In this document: positions 1 through 8,907 of the stretch, in pieces | How the letters are laid out: each line of letters begins with the position of its first letter | Numbering within the stretch: the stretch's first letter is position 1 | Source: Nitrososphaerota archaeon | GTDB taxonomy: Archaea; Thermoproteota; Nitrososphaeria; Nitrososphaerales; UBA57 | Assembly (NCBI GenBank): GCA_013378385.1 | Contig: JACAFS010000041.1 | Coordinates: forward strand, 1 to 8,907 | Direction of reading: 5' to 3' | DNA length: 8,907 bases | Translations under genes and position numbers: made by a program | Notes under the pieces: generated by a model | The model's database searches: none | Seen by the model: only the letters and a program-made list of their open reading frames with translations | Told to the model about the DNA's origin: nothing

Positions 1-32
1 CCCGATATAATTTAGAGAGAATGTATTTACTT

Positions 33-1715
<1,683 letters not shown>

Positions 1716-1742
1716 ATAACCTGAAGGATGTTAGACATAGCA

Positions 1743-1752
1743 TATATATTTT
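1743..1752 (-). promoter_or_regulatory. TATA-box-like element upstream of the thermosome gene
   Basis: The minus strand reads AAAATATATA, centred about 32 nt upstream of the ATG at 1715. With the usual archaeal TATA-to-TSS spacing (~26 nt) this implies a very short leader. It is a motif-level call only. Confidence 0.4.
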
Positions 1753-1762
1753 GTGCGGATTT

Positions 1763-1888
1763 TCACATATCACAATCTAATTCTTCAATTCTATTTGGAT
1801 CGAATAAACAAGAATAACATAAATTTTCAATCATATGTGCTTCAGTGGTTGGAACAAATGTATCTCCACATAATGAACAATTATTCAT
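1763..1888 (-). CDS. Small zinc-ribbon-like protein, 41 aa (MNNCSLCGDTFVPTTEAHMIENLCYSCLFDPNRIEELDCDM), not in the supplied ORF track
   Basis: Hand translation of the minus strand gives ATG at 1888-1886 and TGA at 1765-1763. Two CxxC pairs 16 residues apart (C4/C7 and C24/C27) are the classic four-Cys zinc knuckle spacing. It lies on the same strand as, and 26 nt downstream of, the pmbA stop, and fills an otherwise unexplained 199-bp gap. A 41-codon open frame is only modestly unlikely by chance in AT-rich DNA. Confidence 0.5.
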   Translation of the reverse strand: MNNCSLCGDTFVPTTEAHMIENLCYSCLFDPNRIEELDCDM

Positions 1889-1914
1889 TATATTTACATA
1901 AAATTTGATATTAA

Positions 1915-3243
1915 TTAAGTAGATCGAGTAACCGGTACGTCTTTTATGACAATAGAAGGAGATAAAACAGGAGTTTCAACTTCCCACCAATTAATCCATT
2001 TACGAGTTTGAGATAATGAATCAATATTAAGTAATTGTCTTGGAATATCATCACTAATACGAATGCCATGAATAGGAGAAGAGATTTTGCCGTTTTCTAT
2101 AATAAAACATGCGTCTCTAGGAACAGTAGAATATGAACCAGCGGCGGGGTTTTGGAATCTAGTGTACCAATTATTTGTGATTAATAATCCATTGTTAATT
2201 GAAGATAGCTGTTCTTCGAAAGTAGTATTTCCAGAAGATACATCAATATTCCAACAAAAAGGAGCCATTATTCCTGCATTGCCTGTAGATTTCACTCCAT
2301 ATTTATTAGAAGTAGTAATATTGTGAAGATAGTTTGTCAAGATGCCATTATCAATTATTTTGGTAGATTGGGTAGGCGTTCCTTCATCATCAAAAATACG
2401 TTGATAAATACCATTTTTTGGATTACCAACGTCAGATAAAGATAAATCGTCGGATGAGACCTTAAGATTTATTTTATTGGCAAAAAATGAATCGCCAGAA
2501 TCAACAGAATCAGCTGAAGCTGCATGGCCTACAAATTGGAATATATCTGCTGCAACAGTAGGTGTAAATAAGATATCATATTTTCCAGGATTGCATTGTC
2601 TTGGATTTATTGATGATTTTGCATAATCGCCTGCGTCGATTCCAGCTTTTTCAGAATCTATATCATCAATTGAAGATGAACATGACAAACCATGTCCACT
2701 AGATTTAGATTCAGTAAATGCACGAATATTTAATAAATTAGTAATAGATTCGTCTTTAGATTCAATACCAGCAGATGTTATTAATATTATTTCAGACATA
2801 CGACTTGTAAATGATCCACATACTCGTGATGCGCCATGTTGTAAAGCAGAATTGATAGAATTCTCAACATGATCAATAATAGATTCAGAATTATTTATTT
2901 GGTCAATCTCGATATGTTTGTTTATTTCATAGGTAAAAGGTCCAGATGGAAGATGAGTATAATCATTATTTATAGGAGAATCATTGCAATATTGAAACAA
3001 AGAATCTAAATAATTAATAATGCTAGTTTCGTCTAGATTATAAATTACACCACTAGCGCGTTTTTTATCTTTTCCTAAATAAATCTCAATTGCAATATTT
3101 TCGGTACTGTCAAAGACATTGATTGAATTATTACTAAATCGTATAAGATCTTCATATTCTTTAGATAAGAGAAATGAATAATCGTCGCAATTAAGAGAAG
3201 AAATTTTATTTTCAACTATAGATAATATATTATTTAGATTCAT
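1915..3243 (-). CDS. pmbA: PmbA/TldE-family protein (peptidase U62 family, non-catalytic partner of TldD), 442 aa
   Basis: Size and overall similarity fit the TldD/PmbA family, including the C-terminal G-rich region and motifs such as FDDEGTPTQ and NNWYTRF. At the position of the TldD metal site it has GHAASADS, with no HExxxH. Its ATG overlaps the tldD stop in an ATGA (3240-3243). Confidence 0.88.
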   Translation of the reverse strand: MNLNNILSIVENKISSLNCDDYSFLLSKEYEDLIRFSNNSINVFDSTENIAIEIYLGKDKKRASGVIYNLDETSIINYLDSLFQYCNDSPINNDYTHLPSGPFTYEINKHIEIDQINNSESIIDHVENSINSALQHGASRVCGSFTSRMSEIILITSAGIESKDESITNLLNIRAFTESKSSGHGLSCSSSIDDIDSEKAGIDAGDYAKSSINPRQCNPGKYDILFTPTVAADIFQFVGHAASADSVDSGDSFFANKINLKVSSDDLSLSDVGNPKNGIYQRIFDDEGTPTQSTKIIDNGILTNYLHNITTSNKYGVKSTGNAGIMAPFCWNIDVSSGNTTFEEQLSSINNGLLITNNWYTRFQNPAAGSYSTVPRDACFIIENGKISSPIHGIRISDDIPRQLLNIDSLSQTRKWINWWEVETPVLSPSIVIKDVPVTRST

Positions 3244-4703
3244 GATCGAGTACCTATTCTAATATTTCTTAATCGAACATCAGGCGCTCCAGTCCAGACA
3301 GGAGCTCCTTGCATAGGTTCGCCTTTTCCACAGTTTGCGGCTTTGAAATCAAGGTTTTTGGAACGTGCATCAACAGAAGACCAGAATTTCTTGGATGTGA
3401 GTTCTAAAACGGGGGATTTAACATTTATGTCTAATTCGCCATTTTTGATTAGATAGGCTTCAAAACCAACATATCTTTGGTTTTCTCTCCTATCGTCTAT
3501 ATTCCATTCCATGAAATTTTTTATATAAACGCCTTTTTTTATGTCAGACAGTAATTCTGTGATATCATAATCTCCAGGTTCAATAAATGTATTAGACATT
3601 CTTATTATAGGTTCTTTATCAAATTCAACACTACGAGATGCAGCGTTACTTCGAATATTCATTTTGAATGATGTTTCACGATTATGTAATAAATCAGTAA
3701 TAACTCCGCCTTTAATTAGTTCACGTTTTCGTGATTCAACGCCTTCATCGTCAAATAAATAAAATCCCATAGATTCAGGGATAGTAGGATCATCACTGAC
3801 AAATACTTCTTCACTGCCAATTTTAGTTCCATAACAATCAAAACCAAGATAAGATTCTCCAGCTTGAGCAGCTTCCCTGCCAAGAATACGATCAGCTTCA
3901 AATGGATGTCCACATGATTCGTGAGCAACTAGACCAGCAATATCTGGACCAACGATTATATCAATATCTTCGTCGAATTTTTCAGATTTAGATTTAATAG
4001 AATTAGATGCAATAATCAATTGTTCTGGAATATATGAACTAAGGTCGAAAGATTTTATTTTCTCCCAACCGCCAGAACGTCCAAGTCCTGCATATCCAGC
4101 AGGAATGCTGAATGCAGACAATTGTCCATTATGATTAGCAGTAATAATACTATGAAATGAGACACGAGGAACACGACTCAATATGTGTGTGCCTTCAGTA
4201 TTCACATAAAATTTTTCTTCAATCGAATTATCAATACCTAAAGTTCTATTAGGAAGAGAGACATCGGAATTAAATGATGTAATATATCCATCAACGTCTT
4301 TCAGAATTGATATCATATCTGTAACATGAACGTTTTTTAAATTTTCTTTTTCTGAAGCAGACCATTCTTTATTGACTGATTTTTCACTTGAAAATTCAAT
4401 AGGAGCCTTTGATATTTTTTTAGATGATTTTGCTCTTGAAATTGATTTTTCAATTAAAGTATTAAGAGAATCATCAAACATATTAGTAGATGCAAAGACC
4501 ATCACACCATCATAAATCATACGAATTCCTACGCCTTGTTTTTCATAAGAAATTGTAGGTTTAGATTCGCCATTTTGTAATATTGCAGCCAAATGTTGTG
4601 TAGAATGAAATCTAGCTTCGGCATATTCTACATTATATTTCTGTGCTTCATTAATAATCGAATAAAGTAAATCTTCATATTTTGATAATGAATTGGCAGT
4701 CAA
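3240..4703 (-). CDS. tldD: TldD-family zinc metalloprotease (peptidase U62), 487 aa, TTG start
   Basis: The metal-binding motif HESCGHPFEAD is present (HESCGH at nt 3906-3923). FDDEGV and GxC-type C-terminal motifs also fit TldD. The only ATG/GTG/TTG start between the upstream in-frame stop (4821-4823) and the conserved N-terminal region is TTG at 4703-4701. The first internal Met is about 60 residues in, past conserved sequence. Confidence 0.92.
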   Translation of the reverse strand: MTANSLSKYEDLLYSIINEAQKYNVEYAEARFHSTQHLAAILQNGESKPTISYEKQGVGIRMIYDGVMVFASTNMFDDSLNTLIEKSISRAKSSKKISKAPIEFSSEKSVNKEWSASEKENLKNVHVTDMISILKDVDGYITSFNSDVSLPNRTLGIDNSIEEKFYVNTEGTHILSRVPRVSFHSIITANHNGQLSAFSIPAGYAGLGRSGGWEKIKSFDLSSYIPEQLIIASNSIKSKSEKFDEDIDIIVGPDIAGLVAHESCGHPFEADRILGREAAQAGESYLGFDCYGTKIGSEEVFVSDDPTIPESMGFYLFDDEGVESRKRELIKGGVITDLLHNRETSFKMNIRSNAASRSVEFDKEPIIRMSNTFIEPGDYDITELLSDIKKGVYIKNFMEWNIDDRRENQRYVGFEAYLIKNGELDINVKSPVLELTSKKFWSSVDARSKNLDFKAANCGKGEPMQGAPVWTGAPDVRLRNIRIGTRS

Positions 4704-4745
4704 TAGTAGATTATAATAATCGGCAACAATATTAGTTTTATTAAG
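4704..4745. promoter_or_regulatory. 42-bp divergent intergenic region that must hold the promoters of tldD (minus) and the PIN-ATPase gene (plus)
   Basis: Two A/T-rich TATA-like stretches are present. TTATAATAA (about 4711-4719) is centred ~30 nt before the plus-strand ATG at 4746. The minus strand reads TTAATAAAA (4744-4736), centred ~37 nt before the TTG at 4703. The geometry implies short leaders and interleaved promoters. This is a motif-level call only. Confidence 0.3.
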
Positions 4746-6584
4746 ATGGGAAAAGTAAGCAAAGAGAAGTTTAATAAAGTAAGAATAGTTCCAGATACAA
4801 GCATAATAATTAATCAGATATTATCAGAAAAAATAGGAAAAGGAGAGATTAAAAATTCTGAAATTATAATTCCGATAGCAGTTTTAGATGAACTACAAGC
4901 ACAGGCCTCAAAGCATCAAGAGATAGGATTTTTAGGATTAGAAGAATTAAAGGTAATCAAGGATATCTCAACTAAGAAAAAAATTAAATTCAGGTATTTA
5001 GGAACAAGGCCATCACTAGAAGATATCAAATTATCTAGAAGTGGAAGAATTGATGCGATTATTAGAGACGAAGCTATAAAAAATGATGCCATATTGTTTA
5101 CTGGAGATTATGTTCAAGCAATAGTAGCAGAAGCAATGGGTGCAAAAGTAAATTATATCCCAAAGGTAATTGATGAAGAGGGCAGTAACCTCGACAGATT
5201 CTTTAAAGATGAATTAATTTCAAGTGTGCATATTAAACAAGGAATACCAATAAGGGTAAAAAAAGGATTGCCTGGAGAAATTGAATTAATTTCAATAGGA
5301 AAATCGATTGATGAAGACGAGATAAATAAAATAATTAAAGATATAGAGGAATTTGCACGAGTGAGTCAAAAAAGAGACAAACAAATAGTTCGTGACGGAG
5401 CAAAGGTAATTCAACTTGATAAATTCAGAATAACAATAACAAATCCTCCATTTTCAGATAAACCGGAAGTAACAATAATTAAACCAATTAAAAAATTACA
5501 AATTACTGATTATAGCATTCCTAAAAAACTAATGGAAAGAATAGAAATATCGGCAGAAGGAATATTAGTGGCGGGGAGTCCAGGTTCAGGTAAAAGTACA
5601 TTTGCTTCTAGTTTGGCAGAATTTTATTCTTCAAAGAATAAGATTGTTAAAACAATTGAATCGCCAAAAGATCTACAAGTGAATCCTGAAATTACCCAAT
5701 ATGGGCAACTAGATGGTGATTTTGAGAAAACAGCAGAAATATTATTGTTAGTAAGGCCAGACTACACAGTATTTGATGAAGTAAGAAAAACGAGAGATTT
5801 TATGATTTTTGCAGATTTACGTTTATCAGGAGTTGGTATGATTGGAGTAGTACATGCGAGCAATCCCGTAAATGCCATTCAAAGATTTGTTGAAAGAATT
5901 GAAATGGGAATGATCAGTAACATTGTAGATACGGTAATTTTTCTTAAAGATGGAGAGATATCTAAAACATATCAATTGGAATTAGTCATGAAAGTACCAA
6001 CAGGAATGCAAGAAGCGGATCTTACAAGGCCAGTTATCGAAATAAGAGATTTCATTGATTCGACTCTAGAATATGAAATATACACATATGGAGAAGAAAA
6101 AGTAATAATTCCAGTAATGGAAGTTGAAAAAAAAGAACGTATAACAAAAGACAAATCTATGAAAAAACTTCAAGATAATTATGGCAAATATATGAACGAG
6201 ATGGATATTGAAATGGTTTCGTCTAGACGAGCATTAATTACAACTGATAAAAAGAACATTCCAGAGATAATCGGGAGAAATGGACAGAATATTATGAACA
6301 TGGAAAAAAAACTAGGGATAAAAATTGATGTTGAACCAAGCAATAATGCATTAGGTAGAAATATCGACCACGTAATTCATGAAACGGGAAATTCATTAGA
6401 TATTTTGTTTAAAAGAAAACTAGATGGAAAAACATTAAATCTATACATAGACAATGATTATATTTTATCCGCAACAGTAGGAAAAAAGAACAAAATAAGA
6501 GTTGCAAAGGATTCAGACATAGGAAAATCAATAATTAATGCAATAATTCAGGAAAGAAAAATTATTGTGACAAACGTAGATTAA
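4746..6584 (+). CDS. PIN domain / PilT-like P-loop ATPase / KH domain fusion protein (archaeal PINc-VapC family ATPase, COG1855-like), 612 aa
   Basis: The N-terminal PIN-like module has IVPDTS (D17 at nt 4794-4796), VLDEL, and a TGD motif at aa 119-121. Walker A GSPGSGKST lies at nt 5574-5600 and Walker B-like TVFDE at D344-E345 (nt 5775-5780). The C-terminal KH motif IIGRNGQNI has its GRNG at nt 6273-6284. Confidence 0.9.
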   Translation: MGKVSKEKFNKVRIVPDTSIIINQILSEKIGKGEIKNSEIIIPIAVLDELQAQASKHQEIGFLGLEELKVIKDISTKKKIKFRYLGTRPSLEDIKLSRSGRIDAIIRDEAIKNDAILFTGDYVQAIVAEAMGAKVNYIPKVIDEEGSNLDRFFKDELISSVHIKQGIPIRVKKGLPGEIELISIGKSIDEDEINKIIKDIEEFARVSQKRDKQIVRDGAKVIQLDKFRITITNPPFSDKPEVTIIKPIKKLQITDYSIPKKLMERIEISAEGILVAGSPGSGKSTFASSLAEFYSSKNKIVKTIESPKDLQVNPEITQYGQLDGDFEKTAEILLLVRPDYTVFDEVRKTRDFMIFADLRLSGVGMIGVVHASNPVNAIQRFVERIEMGMISNIVDTVIFLKDGEISKTYQLELVMKVPTGMQEADLTRPVIEIRDFIDSTLEYEIYTYGEEKVIIPVMEVEKKERITKDKSMKKLQDNYGKYMNEMDIEMVSSRRALITTDKKNIPEIIGRNGQNIMNMEKKLGIKIDVEPSNNALGRNIDHVIHETGNSLDILFKRKLDGKTLNLYIDNDYILSATVGKKNKIRVAKDSDIGKSIINAIIQERKIIVTNVD

Positions 6585-6859
6585 TTAAAAAATCTAGTTT
6601 TAATTTTCTTCATTTCGTCAATAACTGAATAAATAAGAATTACAAATCCAAATACAAGTAATGCACGAGTGAATTGTAGTTGTGCTCCACCTCGTTGTAT
6701 TGCAGGGCCAAGTTCCAGCTCGGAAACTTCACCAAATCCTGCTTCTTGAATTTCGATAACACTTTGATTGAGAAATACTAAGTTATCAATTGACTTTTGA
6801 AAAGCAATAAATCCAAATATCAAAAAGAAAAGCCCTACAATGAATGTAAATTTTTTCAA
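6581..6859 (-). CDS. Small two-TM membrane protein, 92 aa (paralog A), TTG start
   Basis: Predicted hydrophobic helices span aa 4-20 (FTFIVGLFFLIFGFIAF) and aa 64-80 (TRALLVFGFVILIYSVI), around a ~43-aa polar loop. Both termini are basic (MKK.., ..KKIKTRFFN), which suggests an N-in/C-in topology. It is paralogous to the adjacent ORF. The start is TTG at 6859-6857 and no in-frame ATG is available. An AAGGT lies 7 nt upstream, inside the end of the preceding gene. Confidence 0.7.
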   Translation of the reverse strand: MKKFTFIVGLFFLIFGFIAFQKSIDNLVFLNQSVIEIQEAGFGEVSELELGPAIQRGGAQLQFTRALLVFGFVILIYSVIDEMKKIKTRFFN

Positions 6860-6861
6860 AC
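6801..6861. repeat. 61-bp perfect direct repeat, copy 1 (5' end of miniprotein gene A including its TTG start)
   Basis: Base-by-base comparison shows 6801-6861 is identical to 7097-7157 (offset 296 bp). The segment covers 2 nt upstream, the TTG, and about the first 19 codons. Confidence 0.95.
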
Positions 6862-6864
6862 AAA

Positions 6865-7155
6865 CTACCTTAATAACATAGTTTTAATTTTCTTCATTTC
6901 ATCAACTATTGAATATATAAAAGTTACAAATCCAAATACAAGAAATGCACGAGTGACTTGCAATATGGCATCTCCTCGCCGTAATTGCTCAACAGCTTCT
7001 TCTTCGGAAAACTCAACTCCGCCGTCAGGAAGTCTACCCGCTCGAGCTTCTATTACGTAGTTTTCTAGGGCAATTATATTATCAATTGCATTATTGAAAG
7101 CAATAAATCCAAATATCAAAAAGAAAAGCCCTACAATGAATGTAAATTTTTTCAA
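6865..7155 (-). CDS. Small two-TM membrane protein, 96 aa (paralog B), TTG start
   Basis: The architecture matches 6581-6859 and the first 20 residues are identical. TM2 spans aa 68-84. The loop is acidic and Arg-rich (RLPDGGVEFSEEEAVEQLRRGD). The start is TTG at 7155-7153, with an in-frame TAG 4 codons upstream. A GGAG lies 9 nt upstream, inside the last codons of the preceding gene. Confidence 0.7.
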   Translation of the reverse strand: MKKFTFIVGLFFLIFGFIAFNNAIDNIIALENYVIEARAGRLPDGGVEFSEEEAVEQLRRGDAILQVTRAFLVFGFVTFIYSIVDEMKKIKTMLLR

Positions 7156-7157
7156 AC
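7097..7157. repeat. 61-bp perfect direct repeat, copy 2 (5' end of miniprotein gene B including its TTG start)
   Basis: Identical to 6801-6861. The 3' ends of the two genes are also closely related: 6597-6676 versus 6881-6960 have 9 mismatches in 80 nt, and the first 20 nt are perfect. Confidence 0.95.
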
Positions 7158-7160
7158 CGA

Positions 7161-7649
7161 TTATCTCCTATCGATTAAAATGTTTTCCAACCAATTTATT
7201 CCTTGTGTAGTTATCTTAAACATAATTTTTTTATCAATATTTTTTTTATCTACATAACATAATTTTTGTAATTCGCTAAGTCGAGAACTAACAGATTTTG
7301 GATTAAGATCGGTCAGGTCGCATATATCAGAGATTGGTGTAAAGGAATTAGTTTTTCCTGCAAGAAATCCAACATAATTAGCAAGTAACTGAAGACAAAT
7401 TCTTTCACGGTCACTCATTTTTTTTGAATTAATCCAGATTCTTGGTCCTTCAGATGTAAGTTTTATCAAGTTATGAAATTTTGATAAGATATCCTCTAAT
7501 GAATAATTAATTGTGATTTTCTGAGCTAATTCAAGGGATGGGATAGATTTGAGAAGGAATTCATTAATTGAATGTAATACATCCTCAGGATTTCCCTTAA
7601 AATCAATTTTTGTATCTTCATGGGTTATTGTTACGGATAGTTCAGGCAT
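7161..7649 (-). CDS. Hypothetical protein with N-terminal beta-hairpin/helix module and C-terminal winged helix-turn-helix, 162 aa (paralog 3 of the triplet)
   Basis: ATG at 7649-7647. The N-terminus LSVTITHEDTKIDFKGNPEDVLHSINEFLL follows the pattern of the two upstream genes. The C-terminal region (aa ~79-158, nt 7176-7415) has a MarR/ArsR-like wHTH layout: SDRERICLQLLANYV / FTPISDICDLTD / NPKSVSSRLSELQKLCYV / wing KKIMFKIT. This is pattern recognition, not a database hit. Confidence 0.72.
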   Translation of the reverse strand: MPELSVTITHEDTKIDFKGNPEDVLHSINEFLLKSIPSLELAQKITINYSLEDILSKFHNLIKLTSEGPRIWINSKKMSDRERICLQLLANYVGFLAGKTNSFTPISDICDLTDLNPKSVSSRLSELQKLCYVDKKNIDKKIMFKITTQGINWLENILIDRR

Positions 7650-7667
7650 GAAATCACGTCAAAATAG

Positions 7668-8147
7668 CTACAAAGTAGAATTTGAAGGTTTTTCAGTAGA
7701 TGAAAGAAGAGAAGTAGACGCAGTATAAACATATTCTCCAGTATTACTTTTGAATCTTCGAAGACGTCCTGATTTTGCCATTCTTAATAGAGTAACTGCA
7801 ACAGTTTGTTTAGGATACATTAATCCGTATAATTGTAAAATTTCTCTTATTTCATTAAGCTTCTTTGGAGTATCAGACCAATTACTAGTAAATAGTTTTA
7901 GTAATACATCGGTCAATGAATCAGATTTATTTATTATGATATCGGGAGGAATATTAGAAGTGTTTTCTACAGTATTATCGTTTATAGAAAATTTCTTATC
8001 AAGAGAATGTAAAGTAGATACGCCACTTAGGGATTCAATTATTTTTGGAATATGAGATATTATTTCATCAAGATTATTAATATCGCATTCAATATCAACT
8101 TCAGCGTTAGAAATTTTTAATTTAATTTTTGTAATAGAAGTTGTCAT
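7668..8147 (-). CDS. Hypothetical protein with N-terminal beta-hairpin/helix module and C-terminal winged helix, ~159 aa (paralog 2)
   Basis: The ORF track starts at TTG 8150, but the next codon is ATG (8147-8145), which I prefer. An AGGA lies 9 nt upstream of that ATG. The N-terminal ITKIKLKISNAEVDIEC (nt 8085-8135) aligns with paralog 1. The wH region (nt 7716-7919) aligns ungapped with paralog 1 at about 25% identity (D..L..NW, L.E..E.L...G..Y.K, Y.Y wing). Confidence 0.75.
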   Translation of the reverse strand: MTTSITKIKLKISNAEVDIECDINNLDEIISHIPKIIESLSGVSTLHSLDKKFSINDNTVENTSNIPPDIIINKSDSLTDVLLKLFTSNWSDTPKKLNEIREILQLYGLMYPKQTVAVTLLRMAKSGRLRRFKSNTGEYVYTASTSLLSSTEKPSNSTL

Positions 8148-8178
8148 CAAATAATTTCCTAGAAAATTCTATATTAAC

Positions 8179-8595
8179 CTATTGTAAGGGGGGTCTTTTC
8201 TGGACATATCGATAATTCCTCATAGAACCATTACGAGTCAATATATTTTCTCTAACAAGATCTTTTAATGAGTGTGAAATACTTGTTTTATCATAATGAT
8301 AACCGCGTCGCGATAATTCTTCGTCTACTTCGGACAGGTTTCTTTCTTTGGTAAACCAATTTTCCTGCCATAAAGTCTCAATTAAATCTCTACATATAAC
8401 ATGTTCAGTGGATTTAGTCATCCTACTAGAAATAGTAGGTTTAGGATTGTCAGACACAGATGGGACAGATATTTTTGTATCAATGCCGCCAATTACATTT
8501 TCAACAGTTTGTTTAACTTTGTCTTCAGGGCAAGATATTTCGACCTCCCAATCTCCATGCTTCAGTTTTACTGTAATTTTTTCTTTATCAGACAT
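8179..8595 (-). CDS. Hypothetical protein with N-terminal beta-hairpin/helix module and C-terminal winged helix, 138 aa (paralog 1, first gene of cluster)
   Basis: ATG at 8595-8593 and TAG at 8181-8179. The N-terminus ITVKLKHGDWEVEISC (nt 8530-8577) is followed by the helix KVKQTVENVIGGI and an S/T/P-rich linker. The wH-like region (nt 8203-8400) ends in a RNYRYV wing. Confidence 0.78.
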   Translation of the reverse strand: MSDKEKITVKLKHGDWEVEISCPEDKVKQTVENVIGGIDTKISVPSVSDNPKPTISSRMTKSTEHVICRDLIETLWQENWFTKERNLSEVDEELSRRGYHYDKTSISHSLKDLVRENILTRNGSMRNYRYVQKRPPLQ

Positions 8596-8606
8596 TTTTA
8601 TCCTTA

Positions 8607-8623
8607 TTGTGCATCTTGCACAA
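8607..8623. promoter_or_regulatory. Perfect inverted repeat TTGTGCA-TCT-TGCACAA, candidate operator of the five-gene cluster
   Basis: Read directly: the arms are 8607-8613 and 8617-8623 with a 3-nt spacer. It lies 12-28 nt upstream of the ATG at 8595 and immediately downstream (in the minus sense) of a TATA-like box. That is the position where archaeal repressors typically block RNAP recruitment. Confidence 0.45.
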
Positions 8624-8625
8624 CA

Positions 8626-8634
8626 TTTATATTT
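8626..8634. promoter_or_regulatory. TATA-like element TTTATATTT / AAATATAAA in the divergent intergenic region
   Basis: It is centred ~35 nt upstream of the minus-strand ATG at 8595 and ~21-39 nt upstream of the candidate plus-strand ATGs (8651, 8663, 8669). It is near-symmetric, so it could serve either or both directions. Motif-level call only. Confidence 0.3.
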
Positions 8635-8650
8635 GAATCTTTCTCATTCC

Positions 8651-8907
8651 ATGTTGGGCAAGATGGGCATGAATTATATTACACGAGAGAAAAATCAAAC
8701 AAGTATAATAGAATTATTGGATAATATAGAGATCCCAGATAAACAGAATAATGAAAAAGAAGATTTTATGAAAATATTGAATAAATTAATTGAAATAAAA
8801 TTAAATGAGTTAGGAAAAACATATTTCGAAGTTGTTAAAGAGAATAAAACAAGAGAAACACAACTCAGAAAACTAAATGCATGGGCAATTTGGCTTGAAG
8901 AAAATGA
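8651..8907 (+). CDS. Partial hypothetical protein running off the right edge (MLGKMGMNYITREKNQTSIIELLDNIEIPDKQNNEKEDFMKILNKLIEIKLNELGKTYFEVVKENKTRETQLRKLNAWAIWLEEN...)
   Basis: By hand translation this frame is open from 8438 to the window end with no stop, which is why it is missing from the ORF track. Candidate starts outside the neighbouring gene are ATG 8651, 8663, 8669 and 8768, so the start is uncertain. The sequence is predicted helical and K/E-rich, with no motif I recognise. Confidence 0.45.
   Translation, partial: MLGKMGMNYITREKNQTSIIELLDNIEIPDKQNNEKEDFMKILNKLIEIKLNELGKTYFEVVKENKTRETQLRKLNAWAIWLEEN

Follow-up and report, generated by a model that had tools for sequence, protein, structure and literature searches.

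Small transcriptional repressors of the BlaI, MarR and ArsR types typically control their own expression by way of palindromes within the promoter region, and repressors in archaea work by occlusion of the TATA box and B recognition element (TATA/BRE) or of the transcription start site. Here, we describe a locus of a Nitrososphaerota archaeon (GTDB lineage Thermoproteota; Nitrososphaeria; Nitrososphaerales; UBA57; assembly GCA_013378385.1) that encodes three small winged-helix proteins (P1, P2 and P3) followed by two small membrane proteins (M1 and M2). The whole stretch analysed, hereafter the window, comprises positions 1 to 8,907 (8,907 nucleotides) of contig JACAFS010000041.1, and a preliminary description of it had treated the five genes as one operon-like cluster of DNA-binding proteins and membrane partners. 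Judged from profile alignments and predicted folds, P1, P2 and P3 belong, as paralogues of ancient origin, to one uncharacterised family of DNA-binding proteins with a winged helix, and this trio is kept in a conserved chromosomal block across the Nitrososphaeria. At a probability of roughly 0.5, we read the trio as autoregulated, probably hetero-oligomeric repressors that would act on a bidirectional promoter through the motif ATGTTGnGCAAsATG.

Family and fold of P1, P2 and P3

The homology of P1 and P2 extends from end to end (BLASTP E 2e-6; hhalign 96.9%). P3 shows no significant similarity to either of them in pairwise or small-profile comparisons, but a profile of the P1/P2 superfamily (60 sequences) aligns colinearly with a P3 profile (34 sequences) over 135 columns (hhalign 94.6%, E 7e-8), which makes P3 a distant paralogue; the three-way paralogy claimed in the preliminary description is therefore clear for P1 and P2 in pairwise comparison and extends to P3 with deep profiles only. 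That all three are DNA-binding proteins of the winged helix-turn-helix (wHTH) type is borne out by AlphaFold2 folds, Foldseek searches and profile matches. In the model of P2 (mean predicted local distance difference test, pLDDT, 73.6), a beta-hairpin (residues 5-22) and two helices (23-41) are joined by a disordered linker (43-77) to a winged helix (78-150), and in the model of P3 (pLDDT 85.6), a hairpin (3-18) and a helix (20-34) are followed by a second helix and hairpin (50-70) and a winged helix (79-158). The top PDB matches of the P2 model were all wHTH proteins (Zur/Fur, BlaI/MecI, MarR and PadR), while the P3 model matched AspA, ArsR/SmtB/CzrA and MarR. Foldseek searches of the PDB and of viral structures returned generic wHTH matches only and left the N-terminal module unmatched. 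This module carries the signature [RK][IV][RK][IV]-G-x-x-E-[IV]-E-[IV]-x-G. All three proteins are under purifying selection in comparison with their orthologues, with ratios of nonsynonymous to synonymous substitution (dN/dS) of ~0.09-0.13 (0.09 for P1 against locus L008).

The absence of any recognisable family, as first described, holds at curated cut-offs, which none of the five cluster proteins reaches in Pfam or NCBIfam, and does not hold at the superfamily level, where P1 and P2 are BlaI/MecI-like and P3 is MarR/ArsR/AspA-like. Scans of all five proteins against PHROGs and PADLOC gave nothing at a convincing level, and when the family profiles were searched against PDB sequences, P2 had no significant match and P3 had weak wHTH matches. 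An exhaustive profile search (E<=1e-3) collected 557 clusters at 50% identity for the P1/P2 superfamily, and all members that were looked up are annotated as "hypothetical".

The closest described relatives of P1 and P2 are the repressors BlaI, MecI and CopY (Penicillinase_R, PF03965). This family scores 14.1 bits on P1 and 14.4 bits on P2 against a gathering cut-off of 22.6; it is matched by 27 of the 60 superfamily members at E<=0.01 (best E 9.5e-8), and the superfamily profile in turn matches the DNA-binding domain of BlaI (1p6r, E 4.6e-5). Besides this remote homology of the winged helix, both groups are small proteins in which a linker joins a DNA-binding domain to an oligomerisation module (a putative one in P1/P2), and P1, like the described repressors, has a palindromic operator, here a putative one, over its own promoter. 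The domain order is different: the winged helix is C-terminal in P1 and P2 (according to the P2 model and to alignments across the family) and N-terminal in BlaI, and the hairpin-helix module is unrelated to the dimerisation helices of BlaI, which form a C-terminal helical domain with a cleavage site. The operator sequence also differs, the window proteins lie below the Pfam cut-off, and no sensor-protease of the M56 type (BlaR1/MecR1) was found in the window or in the annotated neighbourhoods.

For P3, 17 of 34 homologues match MarR_2 and 14 match MarR (best E 2.7e-6), with 17-19 matching either MarR_2 or HTH_24; the window P3 itself has no match at E<=0.01. Its C-terminal domain has the ~85-residue wHTH fold and superposes on AspA, SmtB, CzrA and MarR (for AspA 4rs8, target-normalised TM-score 0.82-0.85 and root-mean-square deviation, rmsd, 1.2-2.0 Å over 85 columns, with a sequence-level E of 0.013), and an ArsR-like recognition helix (NPKSVSSRLSEL) is invariant in the P3 alignment. 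Unlike MarR, P3 is devoid of a helical dimer interface, having an N-module of beta-hairpin, helix, helix and hairpin and a single short C-terminal helix, and full-length superpositions reach an rmsd of ~14-15 Å. Unlike in ArsR/SmtB, the alignment contains no conserved Cys/His cluster as a metal site, and unlike in AspA, no ParA or ParB gene occurs in any neighbourhood examined. The ~75-residue N-terminal module of P3 is unseen in all of these families. P1-P3 depart from the features that define the BlaI and the MarR/ArsR/AspA families, be it in the scores of the window proteins themselves, in the order of the domains, in the dimer interface or in the genes nearby.

Distribution and gene order of the trio

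Database searches returned 45 relatives of P2 and 19 of M1, all unnamed or "hypothetical" and from marine thaumarchaeal sources, and 87 relatives of P3, labelled "predicted transcriptional regulator" in some sources. A genome scan with the P2 alignment added 17 loci from marine Nitrosopumilales, groundwater Thaumarchaeota and the hot-spring "archaeon HR04", which is unclassified in the NCBI taxonomy. Open reading frames (ORFs) were assigned with family hidden Markov models in 34 fetched loci (L numbers in this text), 31 of which are chromosomal. The complete trio is present in 25 of these 31, most of the exceptions stopping at a contig edge, and P1 orthologues occur in nearly all related loci. 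Marine loci have the order P1-P2-P3, while elsewhere P1 is convergent to the pair (P2-P3> <P1), and most lineages keep P2-P3 apart from P1 as a unit of its own. On the evidence of these gene orders, P2-P3 is ancestrally a separate transcription unit that was set in tandem behind P1 in the marine lineages.

In many of the loci (L013, L015, L017, L018, L021, L022, L026-L028, L033 and L034), P1 is divergent from nurA and herA, whose identities were confirmed by Pfam (NurA, DUF87) and which are usually followed by genes for an XRE-type HTH_3 protein (~230 aa) and a DUF92 protein. The nurA-herA region spans 2741-5537 in L013, 7644-10201 in L018, 3055-5722 in L021 and 6491-8973 in L027; L013 has an extra ORF of 86 aa between the two genes. 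Gene X, which is confined to marine loci (e.g., L001 5232-5489), holds the position of nurA-herA there and keeps the promoter motif described below. It has no Pfam match, and its interpretation as a remnant of nurA-herA is unsupported, there being no similarity to NurA, HerA or the 86-aa ORF of L013.

Conserved motif at the P1 promoter

Upstream of P1, the near-palindromic motif ATGTTGnGCAAsATG adjoins a putative TATA box and recurs in inverted orientation at the start of the divergent gene (sites B and A in Table 1). As a pair, these copies constitute a 28-nt inverted repeat on either side of the TATA box. Site B overlaps a perfect 7-3-7 palindrome, TTGTGCA-AGA-TGCACAA (8607-8623), which confirms the palindrome that had been noticed in a promoter-like region upstream of P1. 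The motif is matched three times in the window against 0.09 expected, and in 302 kb of fetched loci all 40 matches (<=1 mismatch) fall at the P1 promoter. The layout of an inverted site, ~20 nt, TATA and a direct site is kept in every lineage, including those with ~40% protein identity; the TATA-like element is conserved as ATATAAAT or TTATAAAT in related loci, and in the deeper lineages the direct site is a perfect 14-bp palindrome (ATGTTGCGCAACAT).

Two further candidates at this promoter were set aside. An ORF that starts inside site B (MLCKMHNKDKNV) could have encoded a leader peptide, but neither its length nor its sequence is conserved, and the position of the TATA box puts the transcription start downstream of its ATG. 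A scan for sigma-70 promoters and terminators, which is uninformative for an archaeon, proposed a single "terminator" that is the operator-like palindrome itself.

In all lineages, including those in which P2-P3 stands separate, the P2 ATG is preceded at ~25-30 nt by a second conserved element, (G/C)(C/T)ATATTAA, which is suggestive of a promoter that P2-P3(-M) has kept for itself and of a leaderless transcript. This element and the separate position of P2-P3 in most lineages render doubtful the single promoter and transcript of the preliminary description.

Table 1 Features of the P1-M2 locus in the window
Feature	Coordinates	Strand	Description
P1	8179..8595	-	138 aa; N-terminal beta-hairpin and helix, short linker, C-terminal winged helix (BlaI/MecI-like at superfamily level)
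P2	7668..8150	-	159-160 aa, probable start ATG 8147; P1 paralogue with longer disordered linker
P3	7161..7649	-	162 aa; distant paralogue; N-terminal hairpin-helix and second helix-hairpin, C-terminal MarR/ArsR/AspA-like winged helix
M1	6865..7155	-	96 aa; miniprotein with two-transmembrane hairpin and acidic external loop (predicted), TTG start, 5 nt past P3
M2	6581..6859	-	92 aa; tandem M1 paralogue with the other loop type, TTG start
Gene X	8651..8907 (starts 8651-8663, runs off the window)	+	Small helical protein, 85-89 aa in relatives; divergent from P1
Site B	8612..8626	-	Operator-like motif ATGTTGTGCAAGATG directly after the P1 TATA box; position conserved in all lineages
TATA-box-like element	8626..8634	.	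Palindromic AAATATAAA between the two motif copies; putative TATA box, probably serving both directions
Site A	8651..8665	+	Inverted second copy ATGTTGGGCAAGATG; ends in the probable start codon of gene X
P1-P2 spacer	8151..8178	-	Contains TATA-like TTAATATA ~25 nt before the P2 ATG; probable internal promoter

Miniproteins M1 and M2

M1 and M2 are 62% identical, and their genes start with the same 59 nt. Hydropathy bears out the claim that both are two-transmembrane (2-TM) hairpins: in each, an acidic loop of ~40 residues is enclosed by two hydrophobic segments and the termini are basic, from which a topology with both ends inside (N-in/C-in) is predicted. Neither shows a protease, kinase or known binding domain in Pfam or NCBIfam scans. 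The model of the TsaT-type small membrane toxin (NF047370), which has a cut-off of 80 bits, gives them 16.9 and 17.3 bits, the match being limited to the second TM segment.

An M gene lies right after P3 in the window and in L001-L003, L007-L009 and L011-L013, and in every marine locus with M it starts 1-16 nt past P3 or overlaps it, despite saturated synonymous divergence. Among the fetched loci, neither the marine lineage L004-L006 nor any non-marine locus has an M gene, and a second copy is limited to the window and its nearest relative, L007 (P2 96% identical). The preliminary description had suggested that the two halves of the cluster were partners amplified together. The trio is phylum-wide and ancient, while M is confined to a marine subset at zero, one or two copies, so that the two halves did not amplify together. 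Nor is the arrangement of three regulators and two miniproteins a recurrent one: the trio is widely kept, M is absent from most trio-bearing lineages, and the miniprotein genes do not accompany the wHTH genes wherever these occur.

It had further been proposed that the TM helices and tails of M1 and M2 stay nearly invariant while the external loop diverges, as would fit two external surfaces wired to one common partner. Synonymous divergence (dS) between the two genes is low at the ends (0.08 for the first TM region, 0.22 for the second together with the tail) and saturated in the loop (2.4), a pattern of old loops between ends homogenised by gene conversion of the tandem copies and not by constraint on the protein. 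The C-terminal tail follows the position of the gene rather than its loop type, reading RFFN in the last gene and (M/K)LLR where another M follows, which also fits recombination between tandem copies. On these divergence values, the invariant helices are an artefact of gene conversion and no evidence of a shared partner. The loop type of M2 is also found in the metagenome proteins P0015-P0019. M evolves faster than the trio (dN/dS 0.16-0.58 against 0.09-0.13), still under purifying selection in comparison with orthologues. As far as distribution and divergence can tell, M1 and M2 are a recent, lineage-specific and accessory add-on to the P2-P3 unit, outside the conserved core.

Gene layout, flanking genes and distant relatives

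The five minus-strand ORFs of the cluster, as first described, were recovered by the ORF call. From P1 to M2, they are separated by 31, 18, 5 and 5 nt; the first gap would be 28 nt with a TTG start of P2 at 8150, but P2 homologues start at the ATG equivalent to 8147, which gives 31 nt. The Shine-Dalgarno-like elements said to lie in the 3' ends of preceding genes were found before M1 and M2, whose TTG starts have GGAG and AGGT 8-10 nt upstream.

The flanking genes in the window are core genes (a thermosome subunit, TldD/PmbA, a convergent PIN-ATPase-KH gene and the divergent gene X), and relatives of the locus also carry ProRS and DUF92 in the neighbourhood. The base composition of the window is uniform and not atypical, and scans with Rfam and for tRNAs found no RNA family and no tRNA in it. 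The PIN-ATPase-KH gene (4746-6584, plus strand) overlaps the convergent M2 by 4 nt at its 3' end (6581-6584), and the same tail-to-tail overlap occurs in L001-L003. The 3' end of the thermosome gene (33-130, minus strand) encodes a tail of GGM/PGM repeats (GGMGGMGGMGGMGMPGMM) that raises the local G+C content and yields spurious ORFs on both strands. Between the PmbA-like and thermosome genes, a 41-aa ORF (1763-1888, minus strand) has CxxC...CxxC spacing (MNNCSLCGDTFVPTTEAHMIENLCYSCLFDPNRIEELDCDM); its orthologue at L001 11982-12107 is ~80% identical and called as a gene, and the product is likely a zinc-ribbon miniprotein.

Distant members of the superfamily occur in other surroundings. In L029 (1-9633; likewise L030), the P1/P2-superfamily member P0250 has as neighbours a large serine recombinase, an HTH_17 gene and a series of small ORFs without annotation, among them three short winged-helix paralogues; the region looks like an integrated mobile element. 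In L031 (756-7577), the 273-aa member P0188 is accompanied by MazG-like, SLFN-type helicase, NYN, NucS, dCTP deaminase and dNK genes, a cluster that could be a viral or defence-related island. A third superfamily clade is represented in L032 (35-816) by a P3-like ORF followed by a P2-like ORF with a 4-nt overlap, so paired paralogues recur outside the trio arrangement.

Discussion

In the reading that we prefer, P1, P2 and P3 would assemble through their shared N-terminal modules into homo- or hetero-oligomers, and these would bind the ATGTTGnGCAAsATG sites that bracket the TATA box. The shared promoter would drive P1 in one direction and, in the other, nurA-herA in most Nitrososphaeria or gene X in the lineage of the window. 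Given the positions of site B, which separates the TATA box from the P1 start, and of site A, with which the divergent gene begins, their occupancy would block TATA-binding protein (TBP), transcription factor B (TFB) or RNA polymerase, and such occlusion in both directions may result in autorepression of P1 together with co-regulation of nurA-herA or gene X. M1 and M2 would be accessory to this circuit, a late addition behind P2-P3 that this strain has in duplicate and with homogenised ends.

Several points weigh against this interpretation. In the lineage of the window itself nurA-herA are not at the locus, so that the link to repair rests on other lineages. P3 occurs without P1 or P2 within 6 kb in three distant loci (L024-L026), which indicates that the trio need not always act together. 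The factor that binds the motif could instead be another one, such as the XRE-type HTH_3 protein near herA, and the failure of every cluster protein to reach a curated family cut-off counts on the same side.

A more far-reaching proposal, which we offer as speculation and hold to be improbable, is that the trio constitutes a DNA-damage or cell-cycle regulator of ammonia-oxidising archaea, i.e., a LexA-like heteromeric repressor with an exposed, possibly cleavable linker that would hold nurA-herA and its own genes off through ATGTTGCGCAACAT-type operators and, in some marine lineages, might receive an envelope signal via the small membrane proteins. The likeness to LexA- and CI-type repressors is one of analogy only: both combine DNA-binding and oligomerisation modules (the latter putative in the trio) with an exposed linker, and the P1 promoter, shared with nurA-herA in most lineages, is probably autoregulated. 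Unlike in LexA, no S24 peptidase or autocleavage domain is found in Pfam, NCBIfam or the folds, and the proteins share no homology.

The adjacency to nurA-herA can also be taken to mean that the trio are DNA-handling accessory subunits of the HerA-NurA end-resection machinery, adaptors to DNA ends or chromatin that are co-expressed from the shared promoter. The arrangement P2-P3> <P1 <> nurA-herA is conserved across deep lineages, the fold matches of P3 include the DNA-coating winged-helix proteins AspA and TubR, and the 1:1:1 conservation of the trio suggests a complex. Against this stand the persistence of trio and motif where nurA-herA have left the locus (the window and L001-L012), the resemblance of the recognition helices to those of sequence-specific ArsR and BlaI repressors, and the conserved palindromes at the trio's own promoter, which are typical of autoregulators; we consider a structural role of this kind unlikely.

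Doubtful, too, is the possibility that P1, P2 and P3 are independent small regulators that share a syntenic block, with the motif belonging to another regulator or representing a core promoter or initiator element. Core synteny in Thaumarchaeota is high as a rule, and the separation of P2-P3 from P1 in most lineages and the ability of P3 to stand alone would be expected of such regulators. Their shared unusual architecture and common descent, and an adjacency that survives rearrangements, argue otherwise, and a motif that is duplicated in inverted orientation and unique to the P1 promoter in the 302 kb is unlike a generic core element.

There is somewhat less to be said for a membrane-gated module, in which M1 and M2 would tether or sequester a wHTH protein through their shared cytoplasmic faces while two outward loops sense different cues, and we think it quite unlikely. 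As in anti-sigma and other membrane-sequestered systems, a small membrane protein is encoded right downstream of a DNA-binding protein, always directly behind P3 in the marine loci that have M. The predicted topology exposes an acidic loop, two loop types coexist, and BlaI, which the winged helix of P1 and P2 remotely resembles, is controlled by a membrane sensor. But M varies between zero and two copies and is missing from the marine L004-L006 and from most trio-bearing lineages, for which reason gating cannot be the core function; gene conversion explains the invariant ends, and M1 and M2 have no recognisable anti-sigma or zinc-binding domain and, as noted above, no protease, kinase or known binding domain.

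The last suggestion of the preliminary description, a domesticated remnant of a virus or integrated element, can be rejected for the window as highly improbable: distant superfamily members do sit in element-like contexts (L029, L031) and the superfamily is large with its 557 clusters, but the window locus is a core neighbourhood syntenic across the phylum, with no PHROG or PADLOC family matches, no atypical composition and no relatives in IMG/VR scanned with P2-derived patterns.

Conclusions

A literature search gave no description of the trio, of its N-terminal module or of the promoter motif, and the N-terminal module, the fixed set of three paralogues, the conserved bidirectional operator-like element and the link to nurA-herA appear to be undescribed in the literature searched. 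The first reading of the locus is corrected in that its core is the trio, and the membrane miniproteins are a recent and variable appendage. Few microbes on Earth are as abundant as the ammonia-oxidising archaea, yet to our knowledge almost nothing has been learned of their gene regulation, and we know of no described regulator of their DNA-repair genes. The locus offers a phylum-wide trio with a new N-terminal module, a well-conserved operator-like element and a physical link to nurA-herA, and its motif can be used for a regulon search in complete genomes, which gives a testable hypothesis of regulation in these organisms.

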